64,000 nucleotides of DNA from Eubacteriales bacterium (GCA_045543495.1 JAZQMO010000015.1:74796-138795); one strand, 5' to 3'. Positions 11,801 to 34,105 are shown, counted from the stretch's first letter. Numbers and translations: made by a program. The notes: generated by a model not told the origin, from the sequence alone.

Positions 11801-12060
11801 AAAAAATAAAAAGTCCCTGAGGATAAACCTCAGGGACGAAACAATCCGCGGTACCACCCTGATTACCGCAACATGTGCGGTCATCTCAAGAGTTCTAACA
11901 AACTCATCACCATGATAACGGGGCTCGCCGTAGATGCTTACTGAATTTGGGCACCTCTGCTCCGGAATGAGACTTTGTTTGATCTACCTATTGTCTCGCA
12001 CCAAACGACAACTCTCTGCAAGGGATTTCACAAACAAATAATTCCTTCTCTGCATTTGAT
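11801..12060 (-). promoter_or_regulatory. T-box riboswitch leader, specifier read as CUC (Leu)
   Basis: Minus-strand RNA carries a Stem I AGAGAG bulge, a distal-loop TGGTGCGA, the T-box sequence AATCAGGGTGGTACCGCG (11847-11864) and the terminator gtccctgagg...cctcagggac plus a U-run (11801-11837). The specifier-loop context is ...aaaguCUCAuucc-ggagca, with the codon at 11969-11971. Confidence 0.85.
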
Positions 12061-12096: not shown

Positions 12097-12113
12097 CTGT
12101 TTTGCAAAACTTT

Positions 12114-12647
12114 TTAATAATTTGCACCCAGCTTCATGGCCTTCATATTGACCTCGATCATGTCGATCTTCTTGGGAGGGATGACCTTGTTCAGGGTCTT
12201 TACAACCAACTCCTCGTCAAACTCGCCGAGAACAGCAAGGATCTTACCCACCAGAATCATATTGGCAAGGTTGCCAAATCCGTTTTCACCTGCAAGCTTC
12301 GTTGCAGGCACATAATAAACCTGAACATCCTGGCGGTTGACCTTGCGTTCCACCAGAGAAGAGTCAACAAAGATCACGCCGCCGGGAGCAACGCTCTCTT
12401 CAAACTTATCCAAGGAGGGCAGGTTCATCGCCACGAGAATATCGGGCTTTGATACAATGGGAGAACCAACGGGTTCATCACTCACGATAACACTGCAGCT
12501 TGCAGTACCGCCACGCATTTCGGGGCCGTAGGAAGGAAGCCAGCTAACCTCTTTATCCTCAATCAATCCTTTGTAGGCAAGCATTTTGCCGGCAAACAGG
12601 ATACCCTGACCACCGAAACCGGAAAGAAGAATCTGTTTGGTACTCAT
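12114..12647 (-). CDS. 2-oxoacid:ferredoxin oxidoreductase, gamma subunit
   Basis: 177 aa. Contains [17 protein letters not shown], typical of OFOR gamma subunits. Overlaps the beta subunit by 4 nt. Confidence 0.85.
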
Positions 12648-13399
12648 TTTGTCTCCTCCTTTGCACTGCGATCCTTATAAACGCCTAAGGGATAATAAGG
12701 AATCATTTTTTCGTCGATCCATTCCAAGGCCTTCTGAGGTGTCATACCCCAGTTGGTGGGACAGGAGGACAGAACTTCGATCAAAGAGAAGCCCTTCTTA
12801 TCAAGCTGATTCTGGAAAGCCTTTTTAATGGCCTTCTTAGCATTCTTAATATTCTTTACATTGTTTACTGTGACACGCTCCAAATATTCGGGGCCATCCA
12901 GCTGAGAAAGCATTTCGCAAACCTTGATGGGGAATCCGCAAGCATTGGTATCTCTGCCGTAGGGAGAGGTTTGGGTCACCTGTCCGGGGAGAGAGGTAGG
13001 AGCCATCTGACCGCCGGTCATACCGTAAATTGCATTGTTGATAAAGATAATGGTGATATTTTCATTTCTGGCGGCAGCGTGAACTGTTTCAGCCATACCA
13101 ATAGAGGCAAGGTCGCCGTCTCCCTGATAAGTAAACACCACGTGGTTTTCGGGATCACTTCTCTTGACACCGGTGGCCACAGCGGGTGCTCTGCCGTGGG
13201 CAGCCTCGATCATATCGCAATTAAAGTAATTATATGCCATAACGGAGCATCCGACGGGTGCAACACCGATCGTGCGTCCTTCAATGCCGAGTTCGTCAAT
13301 AACCTCGGCCACCAAACGGTGAACGATACCGTGGGTACAGCCGGGGCAATAGTGCAAAGCAACATCAGCCATTGCTTTGGGTTTTTCAAATACTACCAT
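12644..13399 (-). CDS. 2-oxoacid:ferredoxin oxidoreductase, beta (TPP-binding) subunit
   Basis: 251 aa. Contains YCPGCTHGI and the GDGDLASIG...NNAIYGMTGGQ TPP motif. Confidence 0.9.
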   Translation of the reverse strand: MVVFEKPKAMADVALHYCPGCTHGIVHRLVAEVIDELGIEGRTIGVAPVGCSVMAYNYFNCDMIEAAHGRAPAVATGVKRSDPENHVVFTYQGDGDLASIGMAETVHAAARNENITIIFINNAIYGMTGGQMAPTSLPGQVTQTSPYGRDTNACGFPIKVCEMLSQLDGPEYLERVTVNNVKNIKNAKKAIKKAFQNQLDKKGFSLIEVLSSCPTNWGMTPQKALEWIDEKMIPYYPLGVYKDRSAKEETK

Positions 13400-13409
13400 A
13401 TTTCACACC

Positions 13410-14471
13410 TCACTTTTGTGCATCCAAAATTGCCTGCAGAACCTGCTCGGGAGACGGGATCATACCGCCGACACGGTTGCAGAGAGTAACGGGAACCTTA
13501 CAATTGGAAGCAAGTCTGACATCTTCAATCATCTGACCCATGCTGAGCTCAACGGAAATGATCTCTTTTACGTGCTCAGCAGCCTTCTCGAAGGGAGCCT
13601 TGGGGAAAGGCCAAAGAGTAATGGGACGGATGAGACCAACCTTGATCCCCTGCTTTCTGGCTTCGTTGATCGCATTCTTGGAAACACGGGCAGCAATACC
13701 GAAAGCGGCAACGCAGATCTCTGCATCATCCATCATATACTCTTCATAAAGAGTTTCCTTCTCTTCAATGGTCTTATATCTTTCGTATCTTTTGAAGTTT
13801 TCTCTCTCAAGGGCATCGGGCTCCAGGAAAAGAGAGTTCACGATGTTATGCTCGCGCTCCAATTTGGTACCGGTGGTAGCCCAAGGCTTTTCGGGAGAAG
13901 GCTTAACATCAAAATCAAGGCTGACAGGCTCCATCATCTGACCCATGGTACCGTCTGCCAGGATCATGGCAGTCATACGGTAGGTATCAGCAAGCTCAAA
14001 TCCGCGAACGGTAAGCTCGGCCATTTCCTGCACGGAGCTGGGTGCCAAAACGATCATACGGAAGTCACCGTGACCGCCGCCCTTGGTGGCCTGAAAATAA
14101 TCGGACTGGCTGGGCTGAATACCGCCGAGACCGGGGCCGCCACGCTGAACGTTCACAACCAGTGCGGGCAGATCAGCACCTGCGAGATAGGAAAGACCCT
14201 CGCTCTTAAGAGAAATTCCGGGGCTTGAGGAAGAGGTCATAACTCTCTTTCCGGTAGAGGAAACGCCGTAAACCATATTGATGGCGGCAATTTCACTTTC
14301 CGCCTGCAGGAAGGTACCGCCGATCTTAGGCATTTTCTTTGCCATATAAGCAGCAACCTCAGTCTGAGGAGTAATGGGATAACCGAAGTAATGACGGCAG
14401 CCTGCCACGATGGCGGCCTCCGCAATGGCTTCGTTTCCTTTCATCATAATCTTTTCTGCCATTTTATTCAC
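13410..14471 (-). CDS. 2-oxoacid:ferredoxin oxidoreductase, alpha subunit (VorB/KorA-like)
   Basis: 353 aa. Contains KGNEAIAEAAIVAGCRHYFGYPITPQTE, QAESEIAAINM, RGGPGLGGIQPSQSDY and GGGHGDF. From memory, this pattern is often annotated as VorB-type. Substrate cannot be read from the sequence. Confidence 0.85.
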   Translation of the reverse strand: MNKMAEKIMMKGNEAIAEAAIVAGCRHYFGYPITPQTEVAAYMAKKMPKIGGTFLQAESEIAAINMVYGVSSTGKRVMTSSSSPGISLKSEGLSYLAGADLPALVVNVQRGGPGLGGIQPSQSDYFQATKGGGHGDFRMIVLAPSSVQEMAELTVRGFELADTYRMTAMILADGTMGQMMEPVSLDFDVKPSPEKPWATTGTKLEREHNIVNSLFLEPDALERENFKRYERYKTIEEKETLYEEYMMDDAEICVAAFGIAARVSKNAINEARKQGIKVGLIRPITLWPFPKAPFEKAAEHVKEIISVELSMGQMIEDVRLASNCKVPVTLCNRVGGMIPSPEQVLQAILDAQK

Positions 14472-14674
14472 CTCTCTACCTTAATTACACAGTCGGGACA
14501 CATCATTGCACAGAAGGCACACCCGACACAAAGAGATTGATCTGTAATTTCTGCGGGATGATGGCCCTTCATATTGATCTTGTCAGAAGCAAGACGGATC
14601 AACTTTTTGGGACAGGCATTGACACAAAGCCCGCAACCTTTACAAAAATCGGTTCGAAACGTAAGTTTTGCCAT
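14468..14674 (-). CDS. 2-oxoacid:ferredoxin oxidoreductase, delta subunit (2x[4Fe-4S] ferredoxin-like)
   Basis: 68 aa with two CxxCxxCxxxCP motifs (CKGCGLCVNACP and CVGCAFCAMMCP). Overlaps the alpha-subunit start. Confidence 0.85.
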   Translation of the reverse strand: MAKLTFRTDFCKGCGLCVNACPKKLIRLASDKINMKGHHPAEITDQSLCVGCAFCAMMCPDCVIKVER

Positions 14675-14716
14675 AGAAACTTCTCCTTTAACTATGAATT
14701 TCTATATTGATTGTTC

Positions 14717-15373
14717 TTAATAGTACTTTTTTTGCAGTGCCAGCGGAAATAGAGGCCGGATGGATGGAAGAAGCTCATCAAACAACTCCTCCTTCACGGT
14801 GGTAAAGCAAAGGGGCAATCCTGAAAGCTGAGAAAACTCTTTTGCCTTCTCAAGGGTGGCTAAAACATCCTCTGCCGTGGTTTCTTCCCCAAGGTTAGAA
14901 TTGTTCACAATTCCCGTAAAGCGAATCCCGGAGGCAATTTCCATTTCCCGCATCACCTCTAAAAGGGATTGGGAATCTCGGGTGAGAGGCCTATAAAAAT
15001 TCACCACCAAAAGCATTTCATAAGAGTTTTCCTTCAATAGCTCAGGGGTCAATCTTCCGAGCGCCAAGGCTCCTCGGTCATCACCGCCAATATCGAGAAT
15101 AAAGCTTGTTTCCTTATCGTCAACAACGCAGTACATATCCTGCGGAAGAGACGGAATGTCCACATTGGTATTGGCATATTCCGAGGAAATGAGACGGATT
15201 CCCGCTTCTTTCAATTCTTGTGCACTGTCCTTGGTACGGAAATAAGGATTGACAATATCAAGATCCGCAATCGCAACCTCTTTTTCTTTCTTCAAATGAA
15301 AAGCAAGATTGATTGCAACATTGGTCTTGCCGCTGCCGTAATGACCCGCAAGGATCACAACTCTTTTAGCCAT
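14717..15373 (-). CDS. P-loop NTPase (SIMIBI class, MinD/Mrp/CooC-like), function unknown
   Basis: 218 aa. Has an N-terminal Walker A (VVILAGHYGSGKTNVAINLA) and a Walker-B-like ILDIGGDD. Overlaps the ilvE stop by 8 nt. Confidence 0.6.
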   Translation of the reverse strand: MAKRVVILAGHYGSGKTNVAINLAFHLKKEKEVAIADLDIVNPYFRTKDSAQELKEAGIRLISSEYANTNVDIPSLPQDMYCVVDDKETSFILDIGGDDRGALALGRLTPELLKENSYEMLLVVNFYRPLTRDSQSLLEVMREMEIASGIRFTGIVNNSNLGEETTAEDVLATLEKAKEFSQLSGLPLCFTTVKEELFDELLPSIRPLFPLALQKKYY

Positions 15374-16445
15374 TGCAAACCTTTACACACCAAGCGTGGG
15401 TATCCTCAATCTTACCCCACTGAATACCGGTGAGCTGATCGTAAAGCTTTTGGGTCAATTCGCCGATCTTGTTGTCACAAACAACATATTCATTTCCCTT
15501 GTAGAAAAGCTGACCGATGGGGGAAACAACGGCGGCGGTGCCGGTACCCCAAGCCTCTTCCAGCTTGCCGTTTGCAGCAGCCTCAAAAAGCTCATCCACG
15601 CTGATCAGTCTCTCTTCTACGGTGTATCCCCATTCCTTGAGAAGCTCAACACAGCTCTTTCTGGTAATACCGGGAAGAACGGAGCCGGTCAACTCGGGAG
15701 TGATGATCTTGCCGTCGATCTTGAACATAACGTTCATCGCACCGACTTCTTCAATATACTTTCTTTCCACACCGTCAAGCCAAAGCACCTGAGTATAGCC
15801 GTTTTTCTCGGCTCCCTCCCCTGCTCTGAGGGTTGCGGCATAGTTACCGCCGCACTTGGCATAACCGGTACCGCCACGAACCGCACGAACATCCTGAGAC
15901 TCAATGGCGATCTTAACGGGGTTAATACCCTCGGCATAGTAAGCACCGACGGGAGAACAGATGATAGCAAAAGTTGCATTCTTTACGGCGTGAACTCCGA
16001 GGTGAGGATCGTTACCGTAAAGGAAAGGACGGATGTAGAGGCTTGTGCCATCGGAATGAGGCACCCAATCCTTTTCCAGTTCAACCAAAGTCTTGAGAAT
16101 ATCAAGGCAACCCTCCTCATCCAAAAGAGGCAGGCAGAGACGCTCGGCACTGTTGTTCAATCTCTTGATATTTTCCATGGGGCGGAACAGCTTAATGGAG
16201 CCGTCCTTGGTGCGATATGCCTTCATACCTTCAAAGATCTCTACGCCGTAGTGCAGAACAGTGGCAGCGGGATGAAGGGGAATCGGACCGAAGGGAACGA
16301 TTCTGGCATCATGCCAGCCCTCTTCCACACTGTAATCCATCAAGAACATATGATCGGTAAAGATCTTGCCGAATCCAAGCTTGGACTCATCAGCGGGCTT
16401 TGCCTTCAAAGAGGCAGTTTTTTCAATGGAAATGGAATACTTCAT
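15366..16445 (-). CDS. ilvE: Branched-chain amino acid aminotransferase
   Basis: 359 aa class-IV aminotransferase. Contains FGKIFTDHMF, YGVEIFEGMKAYR, GGTGYAKCGGNYA and TGTAAVVSPIG. Confidence 0.9.
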   Translation of the reverse strand: MKYSISIEKTASLKAKPADESKLGFGKIFTDHMFLMDYSVEEGWHDARIVPFGPIPLHPAATVLHYGVEIFEGMKAYRTKDGSIKLFRPMENIKRLNNSAERLCLPLLDEEGCLDILKTLVELEKDWVPHSDGTSLYIRPFLYGNDPHLGVHAVKNATFAIICSPVGAYYAEGINPVKIAIESQDVRAVRGGTGYAKCGGNYAATLRAGEGAEKNGYTQVLWLDGVERKYIEEVGAMNVMFKIDGKIITPELTGSVLPGITRKSCVELLKEWGYTVEERLISVDELFEAAANGKLEEAWGTGTAAVVSPIGQLFYKGNEYVVCDNKIGELTQKLYDQLTGIQWGKIEDTHAWCVKVCNG

Positions 16446-16465
16446 AACTCTTCTCCTTTTTTATA

Positions 16466-18754
16466 TTAAAGCATGTTTCTTTGAATTTTACCGCTTACAG
16501 TCTTGGGAAGCTCATCACAGAACACCACAAGACGGGGATACTTATAGGGAGCGGTATGCTCTTTGACATAATTCTGAATTTCTTTTTTCAATTCCTCGCT
16601 GGGCTCGGTACCCTTAGTTAGAACGATGCTTGCTTTGACGATCTGACCACGAACCTCATCAGGTGCGGCAGATACGCCACATTCCAATACATAAGGTAGC
16701 TCCATAATGACGCTTTCAATTTCAAACGGGCCGATACGGTAGCCGGAGGATTTAATCACGTCGTCAGCTCTTCCCACATACCAGAAGAAGCCGTCCTCAT
16801 CACGCCAAGCAATATCGCCGGTGTGATAATAACCGTCACGAATGGCCTCTGCGGTCTTTTCGTCGTCATTGTAATAGCCCACAAATAAGCCACAGGGAGC
16901 ACCGTTTTTCAGATTGATGACAACCTCACCCGATTCACCGGTTGCAACAGGCTTTCCATCGCTGTCTAAAAGCTCAACATCATAGATGGGAGCGGGCTTA
17001 CCCATAGAACCGATCTTATGAGAAGCACCGATCATATTACCGATGATCATGGTGCTTTCCGTCTGCCCGAAGCCCTCCAGGATCTGAAGGCCTGTAGCCT
17101 TTTCAAACTGACGGTAAACCTCGGGGTTCAAGGCTTCACCTGCTGTCGTCATATGACGAACAGAGGAAAGATCGTATTTGGTAATATCCTGCTTCACCAG
17201 CATACGAAGCATGGTTGGAGGTGCACAGAAGGTGGTGATTTGATACTTGGCAAACATCGGAAGGATCTTGGAAGCATCAAAACGATCAAAGTCATAAACA
17301 AAGATCGGTGCTTCGCACAGCCACTGACCGTACATCTTGCCCCACATAGATTTTGCCCAGCCGGTATCGGAAATGGTAAAGTGCAGTCCATCCGGCTCAA
17401 CGGAATGCCAATACTTTGCAGTATGGAAATGTCCGAGAGGGTACTTATGATTATGTGCGGCGATCTTGGGATAGCCCGAGGTGCCCGAAGTAAAGAACAT
17501 CAAAAGCAGATCGTCTCCGCAGGGAGACTCCTCGGTACGGTTAAAGTGAGAGCTGTAAAGAGGATATTCCTCATTAAAGCTTCTCCAGCCTTCTTTTTCT
17601 CCGTTGACCAAAAGCTTAAATTCCAATTCAGGGTGCTTAGCGGCGGCCTTTTCTGCCTCATTGGCAACTTCCCCGTCAGCCGTGCAAATAATACCACGAA
17701 CCCCTGCGGCACCAAAGCGATAATCAAGATCATGCTCAAGGAGCTGATTGGGTGCGGGGATGGCAACGGCACCAAGCTTATTCAGGCCAAGCATGGCAAA
17801 CCAGAACTGATAGTGGCGCTTTAAGATCAGCATGACCTTATCACCCTTTTTAATACCAAGGGACTTAAAATAGTTGGCACACTGATTGGAAGCCTTCTTA
17901 ATATCCTTAAAGGTAAAGCGACGCTCGGTCATATCCTCGGAAATGTGAAGCATCGCAAGCTTCTCGGGCTCACGGGAGGCAAGCTCATCGATCAGATCAA
18001 AGGCAAAGTTAAAGGATTCGGTATTCTTAAACGCAATGGAGGTAGGAGTACCGTTTTCATCCTCTTTCGTATCAATGAACTTATGATAAATGCGTTCCTT
18101 GGTGTCCTTTGTCAGCTTCTTCACACCGCTGATCGCCTTTTTGGGACTCAGCTCGGGAATGGGTTCACCGGTGGGATTGAGAACAATGGCGTAGAACACA
18201 CAGTCCTGCTCCTTCACGGCGATCATACCGTGAGGGGTATCACTGTCAAAATAAATACTGTCACCGGGGCCGAGGATCTCCTGATGCTCACCCACCTGAA
18301 CTAAAAGATGCCCTTCCACCACAAGGTCAATCTCCTGACCTGCGTGGGTTGTCAATTCAATATCACGGTTCTGTGCATTTTCGTCAAATTTGCTAATTAC
18401 AAACAGGGGCTCCGCAATACGGTTCTGAAAAGCATAGGCAAGGTTATAATAGGTCATACCGTGTGCATTGGCAATTTCCTGTCCTTCACCGGAGCGAGTC
18501 ACGGTATAGGAATTCAAGGTGGGGCTGTGACCCTCGATGATATCCGTTACGTTTACATTCAGGGCCAAGGCACATCGATAAATAAAGGCAAAGTTTAAGT
18601 CACTTCTTCCCTCTTCACAGTCCTTATATTCCTCAATGCTCACGCCTGTTTTGATGGCCATTTCTTCGCAAGTCAAGCCTTCGATCTCTCTCAGGTCACG
18701 AATTCTGGCGGCCATTTCTTGAATTTTGTATTCAAGTCCTGTAATCTGTTTCAT
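16466..18754 (-). CDS. Fusion protein: XRE-type HTH plus cupin (PuuR-like regulator module) plus medium-chain (Macs/ACSM-like) acyl-CoA synthetase
   Basis: 762 aa. Residues about 10-70 form the HTH (IRDLREIEGLTCEEMAIKTGVSIEEYKDCEEG). Residues about 110-195 form the cupin (THAGQEIDLVVEGHLLV...GDSIYFDSDTPHGM). The remainder is an adenylate-forming enzyme with FFTSGTSGYPK, GFGQTES, YHTGD, GRADDVIKSSGYRIGPFEIES and SGKIQR. Confidence 0.85.
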   Translation of the reverse strand: MKQITGLEYKIQEMAARIRDLREIEGLTCEEMAIKTGVSIEEYKDCEEGRSDLNFAFIYRCALALNVNVTDIIEGHSPTLNSYTVTRSGEGQEIANAHGMTYYNLAYAFQNRIAEPLFVISKFDENAQNRDIELTTHAGQEIDLVVEGHLLVQVGEHQEILGPGDSIYFDSDTPHGMIAVKEQDCVFYAIVLNPTGEPIPELSPKKAISGVKKLTKDTKERIYHKFIDTKEDENGTPTSIAFKNTESFNFAFDLIDELASREPEKLAMLHISEDMTERRFTFKDIKKASNQCANYFKSLGIKKGDKVMLILKRHYQFWFAMLGLNKLGAVAIPAPNQLLEHDLDYRFGAAGVRGIICTADGEVANEAEKAAAKHPELEFKLLVNGEKEGWRSFNEEYPLYSSHFNRTEESPCGDDLLLMFFTSGTSGYPKIAAHNHKYPLGHFHTAKYWHSVEPDGLHFTISDTGWAKSMWGKMYGQWLCEAPIFVYDFDRFDASKILPMFAKYQITTFCAPPTMLRMLVKQDITKYDLSSVRHMTTAGEALNPEVYRQFEKATGLQILEGFGQTESTMIIGNMIGASHKIGSMGKPAPIYDVELLDSDGKPVATGESGEVVINLKNGAPCGLFVGYYNDDEKTAEAIRDGYYHTGDIAWRDEDGFFWYVGRADDVIKSSGYRIGPFEIESVIMELPYVLECGVSAAPDEVRGQIVKASIVLTKGTEPSEELKKEIQNYVKEHTAPYKYPRLVVFCDELPKTVSGKIQRNML

Positions 18755-18771
18755 TCAACTCTCCATTTTCC

Positions 18772-19040
18772 GGGACAAAAAAGCACTCGTCCCAAAGGTA
18801 TTTCCTTGAGACGAGTGCGAAAACACCCGCGGTACCACTCAAATTGCTGCAAAGCAGCCACTCAGGATCCAACAATCCGTATGCATTAACGCAGCAATCA
18901 CGGAGAAGTTCTACTCCCTTTCGGTTTCTTCCTCTCAGCTCAGAAGCTACAATCACGGGATCTGTATCCAATGGCTTGCACCGACCGCCATCTCTCTGGG
19001 GAACAAATTTCCGAAAAACTCTTCCTCAACGCCTTTAATA
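18772..19040 (-). promoter_or_regulatory. T-box riboswitch leader, specifier read as GUA (Val)
   Basis: Minus-strand RNA carries AGAGAG, a distal-loop CGGTGCAAG, the T-box sequence AATTTGAGTGGTACCGCGGG (about 18826-18845) and the terminator gcactcgtc...gacgagtgc plus a U-run (18776-18818). The specifier context is ccg-ugauuGUAg-cuuc-ugagc, with the codon at 18948-18950. Confidence 0.85.
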
Positions 19041-19047
19041 CCTTATT

Positions 19048-19076
19048 ATTGTAACATCAAAAGAAGCAGATGTCAA
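19048..19076 (-). promoter_or_regulatory. Promoter driving the Val T-box leader
   Basis: Minus strand: TTGACA (19071-19076), 17-nt spacer, TGtTACAAT (TACAAT at 19048-19053). It starts about 24 nt after the upstream paralog's stop. Confidence 0.7.
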
Positions 19077-19099
19077 GTTTTTTATTGAATTTTCAATGT

Positions 19100-21364
19100 T
19101 TACAGCTTATTGCGCTGGATTTTTCCGCTGATGGTCTTGGGAAGCTCGTCACGGAATACCACCACACGGGGATATTTGTAGGGAGCGGTATGCTCTTTGA
19201 CATAGCGCTGAATCTCTTTTTTCAGCTCTTCCGTAGGCTCTGTTCCCTTGGTCAACACGATGCTCGCCTTCACCACCTGACCTCTTACCTCATCGGGCAC
19301 GGCAGAAACACCGCATTCCAATACATAAGGAAGCTCCATGATCACGCTTTCGATCTCAAACGGCCCGATACGGTAACCGGAGGATTTGATCACGTCATCC
19401 ACACGACCGACATACCAGAAATATCCGTCCTCATCACGCCAAGCAGTATCACCGGTGTGATAAAGCCCGTCGTGCCAAGCCTCGGTCGTTTTTTCGGTAT
19501 CCTTATAGTACTCTTTGAAAAGACCGCAAGGAATGCTCTTATCGGTGTGAATTACGATCTCGCCCACCTCACCGGTTGCAACGCTGTTGCCGTCGGGATC
19601 CACAATGTCAAGATCAAACTGAGGAGACGCCTTACCCATAGAGCCGATCTTGGGGGTATCCCCTGCAAGATTTGCAATCACCAGGGTGGTTTCGGTCTGG
19701 CCGAAGCCCTCCATAATTTCAAGGCCCGTTGCCTCCTTAAAGCGCTTGAACACCTCAGGGTTCAAGGCTTCGCCCGCCGTTGTCATATGATGGATCGAGG
19801 AAAGATCGTACTTAGACAGATCGCCGCGGATCAACATACGAAGCATAGTAGGAGGAGCACAGAAGGTCGTAATGTTATAACGGGCAAACATGGGAAGGAT
19901 ATCGTTTTCATCAAAACGGTCAAAGTCATATACAAATACCGCACCCTCGCAAAGCCACTGACCGTAAAACTTACCCCAAAGGGATTTGCCCCAACCGGTA
20001 TCGGAAATGGTAAGGTGAAGACCTTCTCTTTCACAGCAATGCCAATACTTTGCCGTAACAAAATGGCCCAATGCATAGGTGTGCTTATGAGACGCCATTT
20101 TGGGATTTCCGGTGGTGCCGGAGGTAAAGAACATCAAGGCTGCTTCATCCCCACCGGGGGTATCCTCGGAGCGAACGAACTTGCGGGAGAAGAGACGGAA
20201 TTCTTCATCAAAATCGTGCCAATTGTCCTTCTTACCGCCAACCAGGATCATGGTTTTCATTTCGGGACATTCTTTCGCAGCTGCCTCGGCAATATCGGAA
20301 ACATCTCCGTCAGCGGTACAAACGATGGCAGAAACACCTGCGGCACGGTAACGGTATACAAAATCGTGCTCTTTAAGCTGATTGGTTGCAGGGATGGCGA
20401 CGGCTCCGATCTTGTGAAGGGCGACCATTGCAAACCAGAACTGATAGTGGCGCTTTAACACCAGCATTACCTTATCCCCTTTCTTAATTCCGAGGGAGGT
20501 AAAGTAGTTGGCGCACTGATTGGAATAATGCTTGATATCACGGAAGGTGAAGCGACGCTCCGTTTTATTTTTATCCAAATGGAGCATGGCAAGCTTATCG
20601 GGATAAGCATTGGCGATCTCGTCTACGATATCAAAACCAAAATTGAACGTATCGGTATCGGTAAAATCAATCTTTTTCAGAGAACCGTTTTCATTCTCTT
20701 CCAACTTGACAAATTTTTCACAGATCAGCTTTTGAGAATTCTTGGCGGCTACCAGATTCTTTACCACCGAGCCTTCCTTTACTTCATCACCGGGAAGAAC
20801 CACGGCACAGAACACACAGTCCTTTCCGTCCACAGCGATCATACCGTGGGGAGTGGAGCTGTTGTAATAAATACTGTCCCCTTCCTCCAGAACCTCCGTG
20901 TGACTGCCAACCTGAACCTTCAATTTACCGCTGATCACAAGATCAAATTCCTGACCGCTGTGAGTAGCAAGGTTGATGGGCTTGTTTTGCAGGGAAGCAT
21001 CGTATTCGTAGCGAACCCAATAGGGCTCGGCGATCTTATCACGGAATTTGGGGGCAAGGTTTTGAATGGTGATGCCATCCTCCTTCGCCGTTTGCTGCCC
21101 CTGCCCTTTACGGGTGACAGTGTAAGAAGAAAGAAGTGCGCTCTTTCCTTCCAAAAGATCGGTAATGCCGATTCCAAACTCAAGGCAGCATTTATGCAAA
21201 AATGAAAAAGGAAAGTCCAGTTGACCCTTTTCGTACTTCTCATACTCGTCGACACAAACCTCAGTACGCTTTGCCATTTCTTCAATGGAAAGTCCGGAGA
21301 TTTCTCTCATTTCGCGAATTCGAAGCGCGACCTCATTCAATTTTTCAACAGATAGTGTAGACAT
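19100..21364 (-). CDS. Fusion protein: XRE-type HTH plus cupin plus medium-chain acyl-CoA synthetase (paralog of 16466-18754)
   Basis: 754 aa from ATG 21364 (MSTLSVEKL...), preceded by the RBS aaaggagga. The longer ORF-track start at 21493 lies inside the T-box leader. It has the same domain order and motifs as its paralog (FFTSGTTGNPK, GFGQTET, YHTGD, SGKIQR), and the C-terminal part is nearly identical. Confidence 0.85.
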   Translation of the reverse strand: MSTLSVEKLNEVALRIREMREISGLSIEEMAKRTEVCVDEYEKYEKGQLDFPFSFLHKCCLEFGIGITDLLEGKSALLSSYTVTRKGQGQQTAKEDGITIQNLAPKFRDKIAEPYWVRYEYDASLQNKPINLATHSGQEFDLVISGKLKVQVGSHTEVLEEGDSIYYNSSTPHGMIAVDGKDCVFCAVVLPGDEVKEGSVVKNLVAAKNSQKLICEKFVKLEENENGSLKKIDFTDTDTFNFGFDIVDEIANAYPDKLAMLHLDKNKTERRFTFRDIKHYSNQCANYFTSLGIKKGDKVMLVLKRHYQFWFAMVALHKIGAVAIPATNQLKEHDFVYRYRAAGVSAIVCTADGDVSDIAEAAAKECPEMKTMILVGGKKDNWHDFDEEFRLFSRKFVRSEDTPGGDEAALMFFTSGTTGNPKMASHKHTYALGHFVTAKYWHCCEREGLHLTISDTGWGKSLWGKFYGQWLCEGAVFVYDFDRFDENDILPMFARYNITTFCAPPTMLRMLIRGDLSKYDLSSIHHMTTAGEALNPEVFKRFKEATGLEIMEGFGQTETTLVIANLAGDTPKIGSMGKASPQFDLDIVDPDGNSVATGEVGEIVIHTDKSIPCGLFKEYYKDTEKTTEAWHDGLYHTGDTAWRDEDGYFWYVGRVDDVIKSSGYRIGPFEIESVIMELPYVLECGVSAVPDEVRGQVVKASIVLTKGTEPTEELKKEIQRYVKEHTAPYKYPRVVVFRDELPKTISGKIQRNKL

Positions 21365-21390
21365 AGCATGATCCTCCTTTTTAAGAAAAT

Positions 21391-21656
21391 AAAAATAAAA
21401 AAAACGCCTCAAAGAAATTCCTTTGAGACGGGTAATTAACTTACTCGCGGTACCACTCAAATTGCTGCAGGGCAGCCACTCAGGATCCAACAATCCGTAT
21501 GCATTGACGCAGCAATCACGGGAGACATCTACTTGCAGAACGCTTTCGGATCTCCGGCTCAGAAGGGATGGGCAATTTTAGAATACGTTATCGGTTCGCA
21601 CCAAGCACCGACTCTCTGAAAACTTATTTCTAATGCCGTCTTCATCATAGCCTTTA
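21391..21656 (-). promoter_or_regulatory. T-box riboswitch leader, specifier read as AUC (Ile)
   Basis: Minus-strand RNA carries AGAGAG, a distal-loop TTGGTGCGA, the T-box sequence AATTTGAGTGGTACCGCGAG (about 21444-21463) and the terminator cgtctcaaag...ctttgaggcg plus a U-run (21391-21430). The specifier context is ugcc-cAUCc-cuuc-ugagcc, with the codon at 21567-21569. Confidence 0.85.
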
Positions 21657-21663
21657 TGCTAGG

Positions 21664-21691
21664 ATTATACCACTTGTGATTCATTTGTCAA
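21664..21691 (-). promoter_or_regulatory. Promoter driving the Ile T-box leader
   Basis: Minus strand: TTGACA (21686-21691), 16-nt spacer, TATAAT (21664-21669). Confidence 0.7.
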
Positions 21692-21712
21692 GAGTTTTTT
21701 TCAAAAAAATAT

Positions 21713-21743: not shown

Positions 21744-23426
21744 TTAAAAGAGTCCTGTGATCTTGCCATCCTCATCCACATCGATCTTCTCTGCAGCGGG
21801 AACCTTGGGAAGACCCGGCATCGTCAGAATATCACCGGTCAGAACCACAATAAATCCGGCACCGGCGGATACCTTCACATTCTTTACCGTAACGGTAAAG
21901 TGCTCGGGTGCGCCAAGTTTGGTAGGATCGTCAGAAAAGCTGTACTGGGTTTTGGCAACACAGATGGGCAGCCCTGCAAAGCCAAGCTCGGTCAATTGCT
22001 GAACCTGCTTTTTGGCGTTAGGTGTAAGAACGATGCCATCTCCTCCGTAAACCTTGCGAACGATCTGCTCGATCTTTTCTTCAATGGAGGCATCCAGTTC
22101 ATAGGAGAAGGTGAAATCACCTTTCTCTTCTTCGCAAAGGCGTACGACCTCTCTGGCAAGGGCTTCTCCACCCTTTCCGCCTTCTGCCCAAACAGTGGAG
22201 AGAACCGTATTTACTCCAAGCTCTCTGCACTTATTGACAATAAAGTCGATCTCATTGTCGGTATCCGTGGGGAAACGGTTTACGGCAACAACACAAGGAA
22301 GCTTGTATACATTCTTAATGTTGGAAACATGACGAAGTAAATTGGGAATTCCCTTTTCAAGTGCTTCAATATCTTCATCGCCAAGCTCTGTTTTTGCTCG
22401 GCCGCCGTGCATTTTCAATGCACGAACAGTGGCCACGACCACAACAGCATTGGGAACGGGCCCTGCCATACGGCACTTGATATCAAGGAATTTTTCTGCA
22501 CCAAGATCGGCACCGAAGCCTGCTTCCGTAATGGTGTAATCACCCATTTTCAGGGCAAGCTTGGTAGCCATTACCGAGTTACAGCCATGAGCAATATTGG
22601 CAAAAGGACCGCCGTGAACAAAGGCAGGAGTCCCTTCCAAAGTCTGAACCAAATTGGGCTTAATAGCATCCTTCAAAAGCGCCGCCATAGCACCTACCGC
22701 CTTCAGATCCCCTGCCGTAACAGGCTTATCATCATAGGTATAACCTACAATAATACGGGAAAGCCTTTCTTTGAGATCGGTAATGGAGTTGGAAAGACAG
22801 AAAATCGCCATGATTTCACTTGCTACCGTGATCTCAAATCCATCCTCACGGGGAACACCGTTGGCTTTTCCGCCGAGACCGTCCGTCAGGAAGCGAAGCT
22901 GCCTGTCATTCATATCAACACAGCGCTTCCAAGTGATCTTTCTGACATCAATTCCAAGAGAATTTCCCTGCTGAATATGGTTGTCAAGCATGGCCGCCAA
23001 AAGATTGTTGGCCGCACCGATGGCGTGAAAGTCACCGGTAAAGTGAAGATTGATATCCTCCATGGGAACAACCTGAGCATAACCGCCGCCTGCAGCACCA
23101 CCCTTCACACCGAATACAGGTCCGAGAGAAGGCTCACGAAGGGCAACGGTTACATCCTTGCCGATTCTCTTCAAGCCATCTGCAAGGCCGATGGTGGTCG
23201 TGGTCTTTCCCTCCCCTGCGGGGGTAGGAGTAATGGCAGTCACAAGGATGAGCTTTCCATCCTTGCGATCCGTTTCCTTCAAAAGCATAGGATCAATTTT
23301 TGCTTTATACTTGCCATATTGCTCCAAATACTTTTCATCCACATGGGCAACAGCAGCAATTTCGGTGATGGGGCGCATTACGCATTCCTGTGCAATTTCA
23401 ATATCTGTTTTGTATGCCATATTCAT
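21744..23426 (-). CDS. fhs: Formate--tetrahydrofolate ligase
   Basis: 560 aa. Contains [24 protein letters not shown] and [20 protein letters not shown]. It begins 6 nt after the purL stop. Confidence 0.95.
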
Positions 23427-23432
23427 ACTCCA

Positions 23433-26400
23433 TTATTTAAAATATTTCACTGCTGCCTCGAACATACGAATGTCGTATTTACCGGGCACGTTTTGATAAA
23501 GTCCTGCTCCGATTCGTTCGCTGTGACCCATCTTACCGAACACTCTGCCGTCGGGCGAGGTGATACCTTCAATGGCAAACATGGAATCGTTGGGATTAAA
23601 CTGAACGTCGGAGCTGGCGTTGCCGTCAAAATCCACATATTGAGTTGCAATCTGACCGTTTTTCGCAAGAGAGCGGATCAAAGCCTCATCTGCAAGGAAG
23701 CGTCCTTCCCCGTGAGAAATCGGCACATTGAGAACATCTCCAACCTCGTTGAGAGAAAGCCAAGGAGACTTATTGGAGCAAACTCTGGTGCGGACGATCT
23801 TAGACTGGTGACGAGCGATGGTGTTAAAGGTCAGTGTGGGACAGGTTTCATCCGTATCAACAATCTTACCGTAAGGTACAAGGCCGAGCTTGATCAGGGC
23901 CTGGAAGCCGTTGCAGATACCGCACATCAAACCGTCTCTATTTTCCAGAAGCTCGGTAACACCTTCCTTAATGGCGGCATTACGGAAGAAAGCGGTAATA
24001 AACTTGCCGCTTCCGTCCGGTTCGTCACCGCCGGAGAAGCCACCGGGAATAAAGATCATCTGAGAATTTTTCAGTTCAGCCGCAAAACGCTCTACGCTGC
24101 TTTGAATTCCATCGGCGCTCAAATTGTTGATCACCAAGATTTCGGCATCGGCACCGGCTCTGCGAACCGCCTTAGCAGAATCAAATTCGCAGTTGGTTCC
24201 GGGGAATGCGGGAATCAAAACTCTGGGCTTGGCACACAAAACGGCGGGAGCCACTCTCTTCTCGGCATAATAAGAGAAGTTTTCCATAGGAGTTTTGCGA
24301 TCGGGAATGTTGCAGGAATAAACGCTTTCCAGCTTATCCTCATACTTCTTCTCAAGCGCTTCATAGGAAACGCTCTCACCTGCAAAAGCAAAGCTCTTTT
24401 CTTCTTTTACAGTACCGATTTCTCTACCGATCACATCGTCGCCATCTACCTCAACAAGGAAGGAGCCGTAGCCATAGCCAAAAATGTCAGGCAAAGACAA
24501 GGAATCGCAAAATTCAAATCCAAAGCCGTTGCCGAAAGACATTTTCAAAACCGCTTCCGCAACACCGCCGAGACCGAGGGTATAAGCGGATACAATCTTC
24601 TTTTTACGGGCGAGACGGGTCACCTCGTGGAACAGGGCAATCAAAGAATCCTTTTTGGGCAAATGATTTTCATCATATTCGGGTGTCAAAAGACAAACCT
24701 TATCGCCTGCCTTCTTGAATTCGGGAGAAATGACCTGACTTGTTTTGCCGGTCGTAACCGCAAAAGAAACCAGCGTGGGAGGAACATCAAGATCCTCAAA
24801 GGAGCCGCTCATAGAGTCTTTCCCGCCAATGGAGCCGATTCCGAGATCCAGCTGGGCACGGAAAGCACCAAGGAGGGCTGCCAGTGGCTTGCCCCAGCGC
24901 TTACCGTCTTTTCTTGGATGCTCAAAGTATTCCTGGAAGGTCAAATAAACATCCTCAAAGGATGCACCGCTTGCAATCAGTTTGGAAACCGATTCCACAA
25001 CAGCAAGATAAGCACCGTGATAGGGGCTTTTTTCCATAATAAAGGGATTATAGCCCCAAGACATAAAGGAGCAATCATCCGTTTCCTTCTTTTCAACGGA
25101 AACCTTTTGCACCATAGCCTGAATGGGGGTTCTTTGATACTTACCGCCAAAGGGCATCAAGACGGTTCCTGCTCCGATGGTAGAGTCAAAACGCTCGGAA
25201 AGGCCACGCTTAGAACAAATATTCAAATCCTCGGCGAGGGCAAGATAGTGGGAGGCAAAGCTTCCCTTCCATTCCTTTTCTTCATAAACGCCCTTTGCGG
25301 GAGCGATGGAAATATGCTTGTCAGCACCGTTGGAATTCAAAAATTCACGGCTGATATCCACAATCTTGTTGCCATTCCAATGCATCACAAGTCTCTTTTC
25401 TTCCTTGACCTGTGCAACGGGGCAAGCCTGCAGATTTTCTTCCTTTGCCAAAGCAAGAAAGGCCTCTACATTTTCTTTTTCAATGACAACGGCCATTCTT
25501 TCCTGAGACTCACTGATGGCAAGCTCGGTTCCGTCAAGACCTTCGTACTTTTTCGGAACGGCATTCAGATCAATTTCAAGCCCGTCAGCAAGTTCACCGA
25601 TGGCAACGGAAACGCCGCCTGCACCAAAGTCATTGCAACGCTTGATCATTTGGGTTGCACGGGGGTTGCGGAAGAGTCTCTGAAGCTTTCTTTCCTCGGG
25701 AGCATTGCCCTTTTGCACCTCTGCACCGCAGGTCTCAACAGAATGAGAATCGTGTGCCTTGGAGGAGCCGGTGGCGCCGCCGATACCGTCACGGCCTGTG
25801 GAGCCACCCAAAAGGATCACAACATCACCGGGAGCGGGAACCTCTCTGCGTACATTTTCAGCAGGAGCGGCAGCAATAACAGCACCGATCTCCATACGCT
25901 TTGCGGCGTAACCGGGATGATAGATTTCATCTACAATACCGGTTGCAAGACCGATCTGGTTACCGTAGGAGGAATAACCTGCAGCGGCAGTTGTAACGAT
26001 CTTGCGCTGAGGAAGCTTACCCTTAATGGTATCCTGAACAGGTACCAAGGGATCGGCCGCACCCGTTACACGCATAGCACCGTATACATACGCTCTGCCG
26101 GAAAGGGGGTCACGAATGGCACCGCCGATACAGGTGGCAGCACCGCCAAAGGGTTCAATCTCGGTGGGATGGTTATGAGTCTCGTTCTTAAACAAAAGCA
26201 ACCAAGGCTCTTTTTTACCGTCTGCCTCAATTTCGATCTTTACGGTACAAGCATTGATTTCCTCAGATTCATCCAATTTATCAAGCTTTCCGTGCTTTTT
26301 CAAATACTTGACGGCAACGGTAGCAAGATCCATCAAGCAGATCGGCTTATGCTCTCTGCCAAGCTCCTTGCGAACTGCAAGATACTCGTCATAGGTCTTC

Positions 26401-33974: not shown

Positions 33975-34105
33975 AAAAAAGGGCGCACTTAACTCTAAGA
34001 GTTAAATGCGCCCAGACGGTCGGCAATAAGGGGAAACCCCTGAAAAGTTCTTTGTTCCTCTGTGGTGCTCCACAATCATCCGTCAGTCGCAAAGAACCCA
34101 TTCAA
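33975..34105 (-). promoter_or_regulatory. ZTP (pfl-motif) riboswitch with intrinsic terminator, leader of the pur operon
   Basis: Minus-strand RNA reads GGGUUCUUUGcGACUGACGGAugauuGUGGagcaCCACagaGGAAcAAAGAAC. This gives P1 guucuuug/caaagaac and P2 gugg/ccac. It is followed by a small hairpin ggggUUUcccc and then CCGaCCGUCUGGGCG. The pseudoknot pairs GACGG with CCGUC, which covaries with the consensus GGCGG/CCGCC. The terminator gggcgcauuuaac...guuaagugcgccc plus U6 overlaps the UGGGCG element. Confidence 0.8.

Follow-up and report, generated by a model that had tools for sequence, protein, structure and literature searches.

XRE-cupin modules joined to Macs-type acyl-CoA synthetases at a branched-chain amino acid locus of a Eubacteriales bacterium

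Rumen and gut anaerobes require isobutyrate, 2-methylbutyrate and isovalerate, from which valine, isoleucine and leucine are made by reductive carboxylation, as has been known since the 1960s. The ligases that activate these branched short-chain acids, and the control of these ligases, are genetically poorly defined. The closest described enzymes are the Macs protein of M. acetivorans (MacsMa; 3etc), whose preferred substrate is 2-methylbutyrate (PMC10455477), human ACSM2A, and MbcS, the methylbutyryl-CoA synthetase of Staphylococcus aureus, which acts on 2-methylbutyrate and isobutyrate (PMC10026030). MbcS supplies branched-chain fatty-acid synthesis.

Some enzymes, such as PutA, BirA and NadR, have tethered DNA-binding domains. 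The acyl-CoA ligase FadD1 of P. aeruginosa is also reported to bind DNA and regulate transcription, with the DNA contact mapped to the AMP-binding domain and not to a helix-turn-helix (HTH) (PMC12754631). XRE-cupin transcription factors, such as PuuR of E. coli and ErfA, PsdR and PauR of Pseudomonas, are two-domain proteins of about 185-195 residues, whose cupin is considered to sense the signal. Their genes lie beside enzyme genes, which they repress locally as "local functional units" (PMC7901475). The same two-domain fold, an XRE-like all-helical alpha-domain joined to a cupin, also occurs in the non-haem iron enzymes HppE, HEPD and MPnS, which do not bind DNA (PMC7916636, PMC9088020).

Domain organisation of the two ligases

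The window, a 64,000-nucleotide stretch of DNA, carries two paralogous genes, ACS-A (16466..18754, 762 aa) and ACS-B (19100..21364, 754 aa), which were delimited from their ORFs, Pfam domains and matches to 3etc. These genes and all features given with coordinates below lie on the minus strand. ACS-B starts at an ATG codon with GGAGG 8 nt upstream; a longer ORF from a TTG codon, reaching to 21493, was rejected, as it would overrun the T-box leader.

Both proteins have the order HTH-cupin-linker-Macs-type acyl-CoA synthetase. The first-pass annotation had described an HTH-cupin architecture fused in frame to a full ligase, and Pfam searches recovered all parts in both paralogs: HTH_19 (29.8 bits in ACS-A and 33.4 bits in ACS-B, around the gathering score of 30.2), HTH_31, Cupin_2 (48 and 44.4 bits; cutoff 27.2), AMP-binding (213 and 224 bits) and AMP-binding_C (77 bits in both). 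The XRE-type HTH spans residues 10-75 of ACS-A (18530..18727) and 8-74 of ACS-B (21143..21343), and the cupin barrel residues 92-192 of ACS-A (18179..18481) and about 90-190 of ACS-B (20795..21097). The cupin motif quoted earlier, of the THAGQE...PHGM type, is present as THAGQE...GDSIYFDSDTPHGM in ACS-A and THSGQE...GDSIYYNSSTPHGM in ACS-B.

The N-terminal 195 residues align end to end with 1y9q, a 192-residue HTH_3-cupin protein, and structure prediction by AlphaFold gives a five-helix XRE bundle followed by a beta-barrel (pLDDT 89.5 for the module). The helices of the ACS-A HTH comprise residues 6-25, 29-36, 40-47, 55-65 and 69-74, with pLDDT values of 87-97. The linker of ACS-A (residues 194-222; 18089..18175) was placed by its pLDDT, which falls below 50 at residues 198-212, by its low identity within the family, and by the ligases encoded as separate genes, whose alignment to ACS-A begins at residue 220. 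It constitutes the sole inter-domain information in the AlphaFold model (pTM 0.69). The N-terminal region of about 193 residues thus combines a true XRE fold with a cupin, and a disordered tether of about 25 residues links it to the ligase.

The ligase body of ACS-A (residues 246-762; 16469..18019), composed of the AMP-binding N-domain and the C-domain, is 48% identical to MacsMa (E 1.5e-185; Foldseek TM 0.96, rmsd 1.8 Å); the corresponding match of ACS-B has an E-value of 1.7e-187. Other relatives are more distant (ACSM2A, E 1e-100; Acs, about 1e-50), so that the nearest kin of both ligases are the Macs/ACSM enzymes, as first proposed, and not Acs or FadD. The core motifs of adenylate-forming enzymes shared with MacsMa and ACSM2A are complete in both paralogs (TSGT(S/T)G.PK, GQTE, YHTGD, GR.DDVIKSSGYRI and PKT.SGKIQR), including the catalytic lysine of PKTxSGKIxR, and both proteins are predicted to be catalytically complete short/branched-chain acyl-CoA synthetases. 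The HTH-cupin module of ACS-A and ACS-B is absent from MacsMa and ACSM2A, and no PDB entry joining such a module to a Macs-type ligase was found among the Foldseek structure matches. The top-scoring curated family is MbcS (NF047394; 442 and 447 bits), but both paralogs fall far below its equivalog cutoff of 850 bits, which excludes membership; moreover, MbcS lacks the N-terminal module and the linkage to VOR and IlvE genes that is described below.

ACS-A and ACS-B are 63% identical overall, with 50% identity in the module, 17% in the linker, 66% in the ligase N-domain and 91% in the ligase C-domain. These values bear out an estimate made by eye of roughly two-thirds identity or more, with a near-identical C-terminal subdomain and more divergent N-terminal and acyl-pocket regions.

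Gene cluster, T-box leaders and promoters

ACS-A shares a transcription unit with ilvE, which encodes a branched-chain amino acid aminotransferase (15366..16445; NF009897, 480 bits against a cutoff of 307). A CbiA/MinD-like P-loop ATPase gene (14717..15373; Pfam CbiA), syntenic in most of 80 loci, separates the ligase gene from those of a four-subunit, VOR-like 2-oxoacid:ferredoxin oxidoreductase (12114..14674), recognised by synteny and by the Pfam domains POR_N/PFOR_II, TPP_enzyme_C and POR. Its subunits are delta (14468-14674), alpha (13410-14471), beta (12644-13399) and gamma (12114-12647), and the oxidoreductase includes a 68-aa ORF with 2x[4Fe-4S]. ACS-A and ACS-B stand at the head of a conserved cluster that also encodes IlvE and the VOR-type oxidoreductase.

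RNA-level T-box control had been assumed for the locus, and three T-boxes are indeed present in the window. The leader of ACS-A (18775..19038; RF00230, 95.6 bits) has the valine specifier GUA, and that of ACS-B (21395..21657; 86.2 bits, E 2e-19) the isoleucine specifier AUC; with a gathering score of 93 for RF00230, the former lies above the threshold and the latter just under it. The specifier codon, UGGUACC T-box sequence and terminator expected of the class are present, with terminator hairpins and T-runs visible in both leaders. The third is a LeuA-like leader (114.2 bits). Specifiers are largely constant among orthologs, being GTA in 33 of 38 ACS-A loci and ATC or ATT in 21 of 27 ACS-B loci. 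The ACS-A promoter (19048..19076), which lies 24 nt past the ACS-B stop codon, reads TTGACA, a 17-nt spacer and TGt-TACAAT, and is conserved in 73 orthologous loci. The ACS-B promoter (21664..21691) reads TTGACA, a 16-nt spacer and TGg-TATAAT, and is conserved in 54. Each ligase gene is thus predicted to have its own near-consensus promoter and T-box attenuator, with valine (ACS-A) or isoleucine (ACS-B) specificity.

We infer from this arrangement a pathway leading from branched short-chain acids to valine and isoleucine. ACS-A, a putative isobutyrate-CoA ligase of the valine branch, and ACS-B, a putative 2-methylbutyrate-CoA ligase of the isoleucine branch, would activate the respective acids; the oxidoreductase would convert the acyl-CoAs into 2-oxoacids by reductive carboxylation, and IlvE would convert the latter into valine and isoleucine, with the T-boxes providing transcriptional control. 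The preference of MacsMa for 2-methylbutyrate fits the isoleucine T-box on ACS-B and on operons in which module and ligase are encoded separately. Subfunctionalisation of the paralogs to different acids, also suggested earlier, agrees with the constancy of the specifiers and with paralog-specific fixed differences. Between valine-type and isoleucine-type orthologs, these differences are 5-6 times denser in the HTH and cupin (0.08 per residue) than in the ligase (0.014 per residue), where they sit near pocket-like motifs. Those in the cupin include the non-conservative substitutions A97E, Y102I, L117Y and E133H, and none fall in helix 3 of the HTH.

Footprinting of 73 ACS-A and 54 ACS-B promoter regions revealed conservation only of the -35 box, of the TRTG-extended -10 box and of the 5' end of the T-box. 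The -35 and -10 elements are about 90-99% conserved in the 127 orthologous promoters, in which no conserved operator was found. Likewise, apart from promoter hexamers and A/T tracts, the three promoters of the window share no 10-mer. Short AT-rich palindromes made of T-runs and A-runs occur just upstream of the -35 box in all three, and their frequency in orthologs (13/69 and 12/53) is about double that in shuffled sequences (5.9 and 4.6). These palindromes could represent a candidate operator. However, they are of low complexity and differ in sequence, and either a CodY-like box or a terminator T-tract together with an A-rich UP element can explain them. Some loci, with either separate or fused genes, have no T-box and thus need some other regulator; no conserved operator was seen in them.

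The XRE-cupin module as a distinct family

The module occurs both fused to and separate from the ligase. The fused form makes up one large Bacillota clade, within which it persists at identities as low as about 45%, with hosts among Lachnospiraceae, Solobacterium, Ruminococcaceae and Acutalibacteraceae; in-frame fusions were seen in more than 200 clusters among the matches listed. In three cultured Oscillospirales, a standalone homolog of 190-192 residues, 44% identical to residues 7-193 of ACS-A, is encoded 3-26 nt upstream of a ligase of 551-553 residues that is 56% identical to residues 220-759. More distant standalone members, of a Bacteroidota type and about 35% identical, are followed on the same strand by a Macs-type ligase gene in 76 of 77 metagenomic loci, at a median distance of 18 nt. 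In the split form, the module gene is the first of the operon, but in many Bacteroidota-type loci it lies only 30-40 nt after an upstream gene. This survey defines an uncharacterised and distinct XRE-cupin subfamily, found only beside or fused to Macs-type ligases. The label "PuuR-like", given to the module by the first-pass annotation, holds for the architecture but not for family membership, as the PuuR equivalog NF007408 scores 15.5-28.7 bits against a cutoff of 211. The module gene further differs from those of XRE-cupin transcription factors in being always fused to, or co-directional and tightly spaced with, genes of one enzyme family.

The HTH is well conserved, with a mean pairwise identity within the family of 0.54, versus 0.22 for the linker (regions other than the linker, 0.54-0.83), and the family profile matches SinR, the 434 repressor and DdrO. 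It is also acidic. Helix 3 reads VSIEEYKDCEEG in ACS-A and VCVDEYEKYEKG in ACS-B, and the net charge of the domain is -6 and -4, respectively. In the family, the charge averages -6.3 and ranges from -12 to -2 (n=114), while the corresponding domains have charges of +2 in 1y9q, -2 in DdrOC, +1 in 9k3w, +4 in the 434 repressor and -4 in the alpha-domain of HppE. For comparison of individual positions, we took Q29, S30, K40, R41 and R43 to be the contact residues of the 434 repressor. The equivalents of Q29 and S30 are E or D in 96 and 102 of 114 sequences, those of K40 are D or E in 111, those of R43 are F or Y in 110, and R41 is replaced by L or F. Across two phyla, helix 3 almost invariably carries a Glu-Glu-Tyr signature. 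The DNA-reading surface of XRE-cupin transcription factors, with polar or basic residues at the start of helix 3 and in the loop after it and a neutral or positive charge, is thus not seen in the family, which appears to lack the usual DNA-contact chemistry; canonical DNA binding is disfavoured.

The cupin of ACS-A has invariant residues at H137, E141 and H175, as well as at D143, D165 and G176, and the same His-X3-Glu...His pattern is invariant in ACS-B (THSGQE...PHGM). After 1y9q, the two-domain Foldseek matches of the module are HppE, Psf4, HEPD and MPnS (E 3.5e-14 to 1e-12, about 195 columns). The family profile aligns with HppE end to end (positions 8-183 against 11-195; E 3.7e-7), placing H137, E141 and H175 on H138, E142 and H180, the Fe(II) ligands of HppE (PMC7916636). 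An HppE-type 2-His-1-Glu triad, and hence a putative metal site, is therefore predicted in the module. HppE also resembles the module in that its acidic alpha-domain is part of an enzyme. The likeness to this catalytic protein is one of fold and sequence, at only about 20% identity, and HppE serves phosphonate biosynthesis, whereas the module occurs in a branched-chain amino acid context and in anaerobes. HppE Lys23, a residue of the alpha-domain that binds the phosphonate substrate, corresponds to a non-conserved Glu/Gly position in the family alignment. The triad alone cannot separate a sensor, an enzyme and a transcription factor, since regulator-type cupins such as that of PuuR keep it too.

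Possible roles of the module

We favour, with about half of our confidence, the view that the module is a ligand- or metal-binding accessory domain that acts on the ligase at the protein level, and not a DNA-binding repressor. A small ligand would be bound by the cupin, probably via a metal coordinated by His137, Glu141 and His175, and the acidic XRE-like domain would, as in HppE, be used for contacts between proteins or for oligomerisation. Most economically, a metabolite specific to the branch (the end-product amino acid, the 2-oxoacid, the acid or the acyl-CoA) would allosterically gate the ligase reaction, which is the first committed step and consumes ATP. The obligate partnership with a Macs-type ligase, either split or fused, suggests such a role, as do an HTH that is constrained yet apparently not DNA-like, the paralog-specific constraint in the module and its flexible tether. 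A conserved acidic "DNA-reading" face combined with a site resembling that of iron enzymes likewise suggests that the module may control or assist the ligase, although direct contact between the two is a proposal. The initial reading raised the option that the cupin senses a ligand allosterically, which is compatible with all findings. On the other side, the module is homologous to genuine DNA-binding regulators (HTH_19/HTH_31/HTH_3; SinR, 434 repressor, DdrO), and acidic residues are no absolute bar to binding DNA. Moreover, gene adjacency alone fits a transcription factor equally well, because XRE-cupin factors repress adjacent enzyme genes (PMC7901475).

The initial reading also regarded the proteins as possible trigger enzymes. 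In that case the HTH, dimerised through the cupin, would bind an operator at its own or at cluster promoters, with a DNA affinity altered by a ligand of the cupin or by the catalytic state of the ligase, adding control of transcription initiation above the T-boxes. One polypeptide does unite an enzyme with a domain of DNA-binding type, as in PutA, BirA and NadR; DNA binding itself was not borne out. The genuine XRE and cupin folds, an architecture characteristic of repressors that act locally on adjoining metabolic genes (PMC7901475), the leading position of the module gene in split operons, the need for another regulator at T-box-less loci, and the palindromes of the three window promoters, enriched about twofold over shuffles, all agree with this reading, for which FadD1 provides a further precedent (PMC12754631), albeit one that contacts DNA through its AMP-binding domain, while ACS-A and ACS-B carry a separate HTH devoid of the usual contact chemistry. 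Against it speak the acidic or hydrophobic residues at canonical contact positions, the lack of a sequence-conserved operator in 127 promoters whose core elements are well conserved, the low complexity and alternative origins of the palindromes, the Bacteroidota-type module genes lying close behind another gene, the absence of paralog-specific differences in helix 3, and the precedent of HppE, whose fold need not bind DNA. These data only weakly support a trigger enzyme, which we regard as unlikely. The cupin may instead be catalytic, acting in an HppE-like, metal-dependent manner on a substrate, intermediate or product of the ligase, to which it would be physically coupled for channelling; it might, for instance, edit or hydrolyse mis-formed acyl-adenylates, or isomerise or epimerise the branched acid or the acyl-CoA. 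We know of no extra chemical step needed between branched-chain fatty acids and branched-chain amino acids, and the achiral nature of isobutyrate in the valine branch prevents a racemase role from being general. The invariant D143, D165 and G176 beside a triad that falls on the HppE Fe(II) ligands (PMC7916636), the fact that all nearest characterised two-domain structural neighbours are enzymes, the stoichiometric coupling typical of enzyme partners that fusion or tight spacing would bring, and the mishandling of many acyl-adenylates by MacsMa (PMC10455477) are in keeping with catalysis. In contrast, O2- or H2O2-dependent chemistry of the HppE/HEPD kind is improbable in strict anaerobes, HppE Lys23 is not conserved, and Macs and MbcS function without such a partner (PMC10455477, PMC10026030), making a catalytic cupin decidedly unlikely.

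Cupins commonly dimerise, and the module could be a structural relic, a former local repressor caught by fusion that senses no ligand and now acts only as a scaffold for dimerisation or solubility. Loss of the DNA-contact surface and the flexible tether would be expected of such a scaffold. The invariance of the His/Glu/His(+Asp) residues and near-invariance of the helix 3 signature across two phyla, the concentration of paralog-specific substitutions in the module, and the retention of a separate gene in 76 of 77 loci point to an active and specific function, and a relic is very improbable.

Returning to an accessory domain acting on the ligase, a wider proposal, held slightly less firmly than evenly, is that acidic XRE-cupins form an unrecognised class of dedicated, non-DNA-binding partner subunits of Macs-type ligases in gut and rumen Bacteroidota and Bacillota, split or fused, in which the HppE-like His/Glu/His site would sense a branch metabolite or the iron/redox state and gate acid activation. 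Small ligand-binding partners adjoining or fused to a first-step enzyme, with attenuation and protein-level feedback operating together, are exemplified by IlvN/IlvH of acetohydroxyacid synthase and by the C-terminal domain of LeuA. The analogy is functional only: those domains have the ACT or LeuA_dimer fold and not that of an XRE-cupin, and feedback inhibition of the ligases is proposed here by analogy.

With its T-box-controlled ligases, one for each branch, its VOR and its IlvE, the locus offers a clean gene set that can be tested. Should the module regulate the ligase at the protein level or be its catalytic partner, genome annotation systematically gives a transcription-factor label to a subunit of metabolism, and a role apart from DNA would be a second use of XRE-cupins outside transcription, after HppE/HEPD, with a "transcription-factor" fold repurposed. 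If it binds DNA, it would constitute a widespread trigger enzyme, combining riboswitch-like and protein-level control in branched-chain amino acid salvage. Either outcome is relevant to the supplementation of ruminants with branched-chain VFA and to fluxes of branched-chain amino and fatty acids in the human gut.

The locus further brings to light a protein family that is uncharacterised yet very abundant: thousands of clusters are labelled only "AMP-binding protein", "cupin domain-containing protein" or "XRE family transcriptional regulator".

Architecture of the fusions and of their split relatives

The two paralogous fusions of the window, ACS-A (valine branch) and ACS-B (isoleucine branch), are encoded on the minus strand by ORFs of 762 aa (16466-18754) and 754 aa (19100-21364), respectively. 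The ATG of ACS-B lies 8 nt after a GGAGG. A TTG start for ACS-B (ORF to 21493) was rejected because it overlaps the T-box leader; the mechanical ORF adds 43 codons (21365-21493, minus strand) running across the T-box terminator region. Some of the 796-805-aa homologs in databases, such as P0024 and P0057, probably result from the same start-site mis-call.

Pfam searches revealed HTH_19/HTH_31, Cupin_2, AMP-binding and AMP-binding_C domains in both paralogs. The N-terminal ~195 aa, hereafter the module, can be aligned over their full extent with 1y9q, an HTH_3-cupin protein of 192 aa. The full-length AlphaFold model, obtained from a 114-sequence alignment (pLDDT 86.1, pTM 0.69; ACS-A numbering), features a bundle of five helices (6-25, 29-36, 40-47, 55-65 and 69-74), a beta-barrel (residues 92-192) and a disordered linker (198-212, pLDDT <50), followed by the ligase. 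The module modelled alone has a pLDDT of 89.5. The ligase body, in which all adenylate-forming motifs are intact, matches the Macs enzyme of M. acetivorans (MacsMa, PDB 3etc; E 1.5e-185, 48% identity, TM 0.96, rmsd 1.8 A), the next-best relatives being the Metallosphaera 4-hydroxybutyrate-CoA ligase and human ACSM2A. The preferred substrate of MacsMa is 2-methylbutyrate (PMC10455477), and alignment to the PDB chain shows that both paralogs keep every Trp in the region around MacsMa Trp259. The best curated family is that of MbcS, the methylbutyryl-CoA synthetase of S. aureus (PMC10026030), with a score well below the cutoff. Overall identity between ACS-A and ACS-B is 63%, with lower values for the module (50%) and the linker (17%) and higher ones for the ligase N-domain (66%) and C-domain (91%).

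The module, used as query in an exhaustive search, retrieved full-length fusions and many standalone proteins of ~185-195 aa (31-45% identity). The standalone module genes of Hydrogenoanaerobacterium, Ligaoa and Zongyangia are located 3-26 nt 5' of a ligase gene encoding 551-553 aa. These split pairs are 44% (residues 7-193) and 56% (residues 220-759) identical to ACS-A, and in two of the three genera the pair is preceded by an Ile (AUC) T-box. Distant standalone members (Prolixibacteraceae-type), identified in metagenomes with a 7-sequence alignment as query, have a Macs-type ligase downstream on the same strand in 76 of the 77 loci with room for one, and the median gap in the metagenomic split loci is 18 nt. 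Fusions are common in Lachnospiraceae, Solobacterium, Ruminococcaceae and other Clostridia. There, too, they are often arranged in tandem, adjoining aminotransferase genes or genes for a LeuA-like protein or a 2-oxoacid:ferredoxin oxidoreductase (VOR). In a rough NJ tree of the ligase, the fused forms group in one clade whose sister group is formed by the split pairs of Oscillospirales. The window proteins thus represent a conserved two-gene module in fused form. Repeated independent fusions, considered as a sign of physical interaction, are not supported, since all fused forms fall in a single clade of this rough tree.

Bacteroidota-type split pairs (L098, L105, L131, L164 and many of L100-L160) often lie 3' of a gene for a protein whose C-terminal end resembles that of pyrroline-5-carboxylate reductase (ProC), at a distance of only 30-40 nt and with no T-box. 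Some of these loci feature module-ligase-module-ligase tandem repeats or neighbouring VOR subunits.

On the basis of the domain, structural and regional identity data, the first-pass annotation therefore described both proteins accurately. It had placed the two long ORFs at exactly these coordinates, read them as an HTH and a cupin fused to a full-length Macs/ACSM-type enzyme, and judged by eye that the C-terminal subdomain is near-identical and the N-terminal part divergent. The domain searches and full-length structure prediction that it proposed yielded the domains and folds reported here, and the proposed taxonomic survey located fused forms across Clostridia and in Solobacterium, and split forms in Oscillospirales and Bacteroidota-type loci. 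Its description of the module as PuuR-like fared less well, as the PuuR family gives only 15-29 bits where the cutoff is 211. No curated family covering the module was found, and a literature search returned no characterisation of the HTH-cupin-acyl-CoA synthetase architecture. The observation is real, and the module family is large, conserved and uncharacterised.

T-box leaders and gene cluster

Three minus-strand T-box leaders were identified, and their specifiers were taken from the specifier position of the Rfam model. The leader of ACS-A (18804-19038; 95.6 bits) carries GUA (Val), that of ACS-B (21421-21657; 86.2 bits, E 2e-19, slightly under the gathering score) AUC (Ile), and that of the LeuA-like gene (11829-12059; 114 bits) CUC (Leu). 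Among the orthologous loci whose codon was readable with a landmark rule, the assignment is kept in 33/38 for ACS-A, 21/27 for ACS-B and 20/21 for the LeuA-like gene. In the window, the ACS-B specifier is followed by C (21570-21574, minus strand) rather than by the usual purine; in orthologs this base is A (12), C (8), G (4) or T (3). T-boxes do not accompany every module-ligase pair: 17 split loci of the Bacteroidota type lack them, as do Lachnospiraceae and P0406 fused loci.

A near-consensus promoter is present 5' of each ACS leader. No terminator separates ACS-B from the ACS-A promoter, and read-through from ACS-B would thus meet the Val T-box terminator. The genes 3' of ACS-A encode the branched-chain aminotransferase IlvE (480 bits, exceeding the equivalog cutoff), a CbiA-like ATPase and a delta-alpha-beta-gamma VOR. 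IlvE and the oxidoreductase lie behind the Val-specific T-box only (12114-19076, minus strand), though they are presumably needed by all three branches; in other related loci, IlvE is placed after VOR. Across 80 species-level genomes (Acutalibacteraceae, Oscillospiraceae and 'Ruminococcus' MAGs from ruminant and human gut), the genes keep the order ACS-B, ACS-A, ATPase, VOR, IlvE; the LeuA-like gene and a ligase of a second kind often come next. In rumen bacteria, branched VFAs undergo reductive carboxylation. We infer that the cluster salvages branched acids, its putative substrates, in the direction of branched-chain amino acids; the ACS ligases would catalyse the first, ATP-consuming step.

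Candidate roles of the module

Canonical XRE-cupin transcription factors repress neighbouring enzyme genes locally (PMC7901475), and module-enzyme adjacency is therefore not decisive as to DNA binding. The HTH is under constraint (mean pairwise identity 0.54 vs 0.22 in the linker). In 114 sequences, helix 3 carries E/D at positions 41 (96 sequences) and 42 (102) and Tyr43 (113); in the loop that follows, position 52 is D/E in 111, position 53 is L/F and position 55 is F/Y in 110. By gapless alignment, positions 41, 42, 52, 53 and 55 correspond to Gln29, Ser30, Lys40, Arg41 and Arg43 of 434 repressor, which contact DNA in that protein. The mean net charge of the HTH domain is -6.3 (range -12 to -2), compared with +2 for 1y9q, -2 for DdrOC, +1 for the PbsX-type 9k3w and +4 for 434 repressor; the alpha-domain of HppE, an enzyme, has a charge of -4.

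When the regions upstream of 73 ACS-A and 54 ACS-B orthologs were footprinted phylogenetically, the -35, the -10 with its TRTG extension and the beginning of the T-box proved strongly conserved, and no operator-like block was seen. No shared element was seen in the T-box-less loci, and the three window promoters have no 10-mers in common besides promoter hexamers and A/T tracts. The sole hint of an operator comes from AT-rich palindromes just 5' of the -35, which differ per promoter: ATTGAAaaTTCAAT (19080-19093), TTTTTTTGAAAAAAA (21693-21707) and GTTTTGCAAAAC (12098-12109), all on the minus strand. Such T-run/A-run palindromes, of low complexity and not conserved in sequence, occur in ~20% of orthologous promoters, about twice the mononucleotide-shuffle expectation. 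They resemble degenerate versions of the CodY consensus, AATTTTCWGAAAATT, and could equally be explained as CodY-like boxes or as terminator T-tracts combined with A-rich UP elements. With acidic or hydrophobic residues at the contact positions, an acidic HTH and no conserved operator-like block in the orthologous promoters, a true DNA-binding trigger enzyme appears unlikely, and we infer that the module acts without binding DNA. The first-pass label of PuuR-like trigger enzyme is, given also the low PuuR scores, not well supported.

After 1y9q, the two-domain Foldseek matches to the module were HppE, Psf4, HEPD and MPnS, non-haem iron enzymes that likewise join an XRE-like helical domain to a cupin; they show that this fold has uses outside transcription. 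The module-family profile matches HppE along the entire length (E 3.7e-7). Counted along the printed alignment, the invariant His137, Glu141 and His175 fall on HppE His138, Glu142 and His180, which hold the one Fe(II) of that enzyme (PMC7916636). HppE forms a homotetramer, each subunit combining an alpha-domain with a cupin (PMC9088020). Both the Bacteroidota-type standalone proteins and the 114-sequence alignment keep the three module residues without exception. Binding of a metal, or of a ligand bridged by a metal, is therefore very probable for the module. A similar H-x3-E...H pattern also occurs in PuuR-type regulators.

To compare the branches, we selected positions conserved in at least 90% of each group but differing between 80 ACS-A-type and 58 ACS-B-type orthologs. 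Fourteen are found in the module (0.08 per residue) vs 7 in the ligase (0.014 per residue); therefore, the module has specialised with the branch, a pattern to be anticipated more for a sensor dedicated to one branch than for a generic scaffold. Changes in the cupin are largely non-conservative (A97E, Y102I, L117Y, E133H), and none of the group-specific positions maps to helix 3. Those of the ligase cluster in 'GW(A/G)KS(M/L)WGK' and C-terminal to the GQTE motif; replacement of Ala by Gly in the Ile-type ligase may be consistent with a larger acid. Together with the Val and Ile specifiers, these positions bear out the subfunctionalisation of the paralogs put forward in the first-pass annotation.

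A catalytic cupin could account for the HppE-like His/Glu/His site; such a site is not in itself proof of catalysis, and we regard this role as improbable. That the module is a purely structural relic seems more improbable still. The reading we prefer, with roughly even confidence, combines two layers of control: the T-boxes would provide amino-acid-specific transcriptional control, and the tethered XRE-cupin module would control or assist the ligase at the protein level through the cupin metal/ligand site, possibly allosterically, with the acidic helical domain mediating protein contacts.

Other genes around the cluster

The LeuA-like gene (10404-11783, minus strand) encodes HMGL-like and LeuA_dimer domains and scores under all 2-isopropylmalate synthase cutoffs. 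It shares the Leu (CUC) T-box with a third ligase of 834 aa (7897-10401, minus strand), which is syntenic across many related loci. In the 834-aa protein, an N-terminal xylose-isomerase-like TIM barrel (AP_endonuc_2) is fused to an AMP-binding enzyme of the PRK12583 type that shares only 26% identity with ACS-A; this ligase may be the isovalerate/Leu-branch counterpart. The CbiA/MinD-like P-loop ATPase (14717-15373, minus strand), which had no match in an NCBIfam search, separates the ligase genes from those of VOR in most of the 80 related loci, and likewise in one from Lachnospiraceae (L168, 3667-4371); it may be a maturation or accessory factor of the oxidoreductase. A formate-tetrahydrofolate ligase gene (21744-23426) lies directly upstream of the ACS cluster, beside an FGAM-synthase-sized ORF (23433-27125), and a ZMP/ZTP riboswitch (34003-34100, minus strand; 57.5 bits) is located upstream of a minus-strand gene block.
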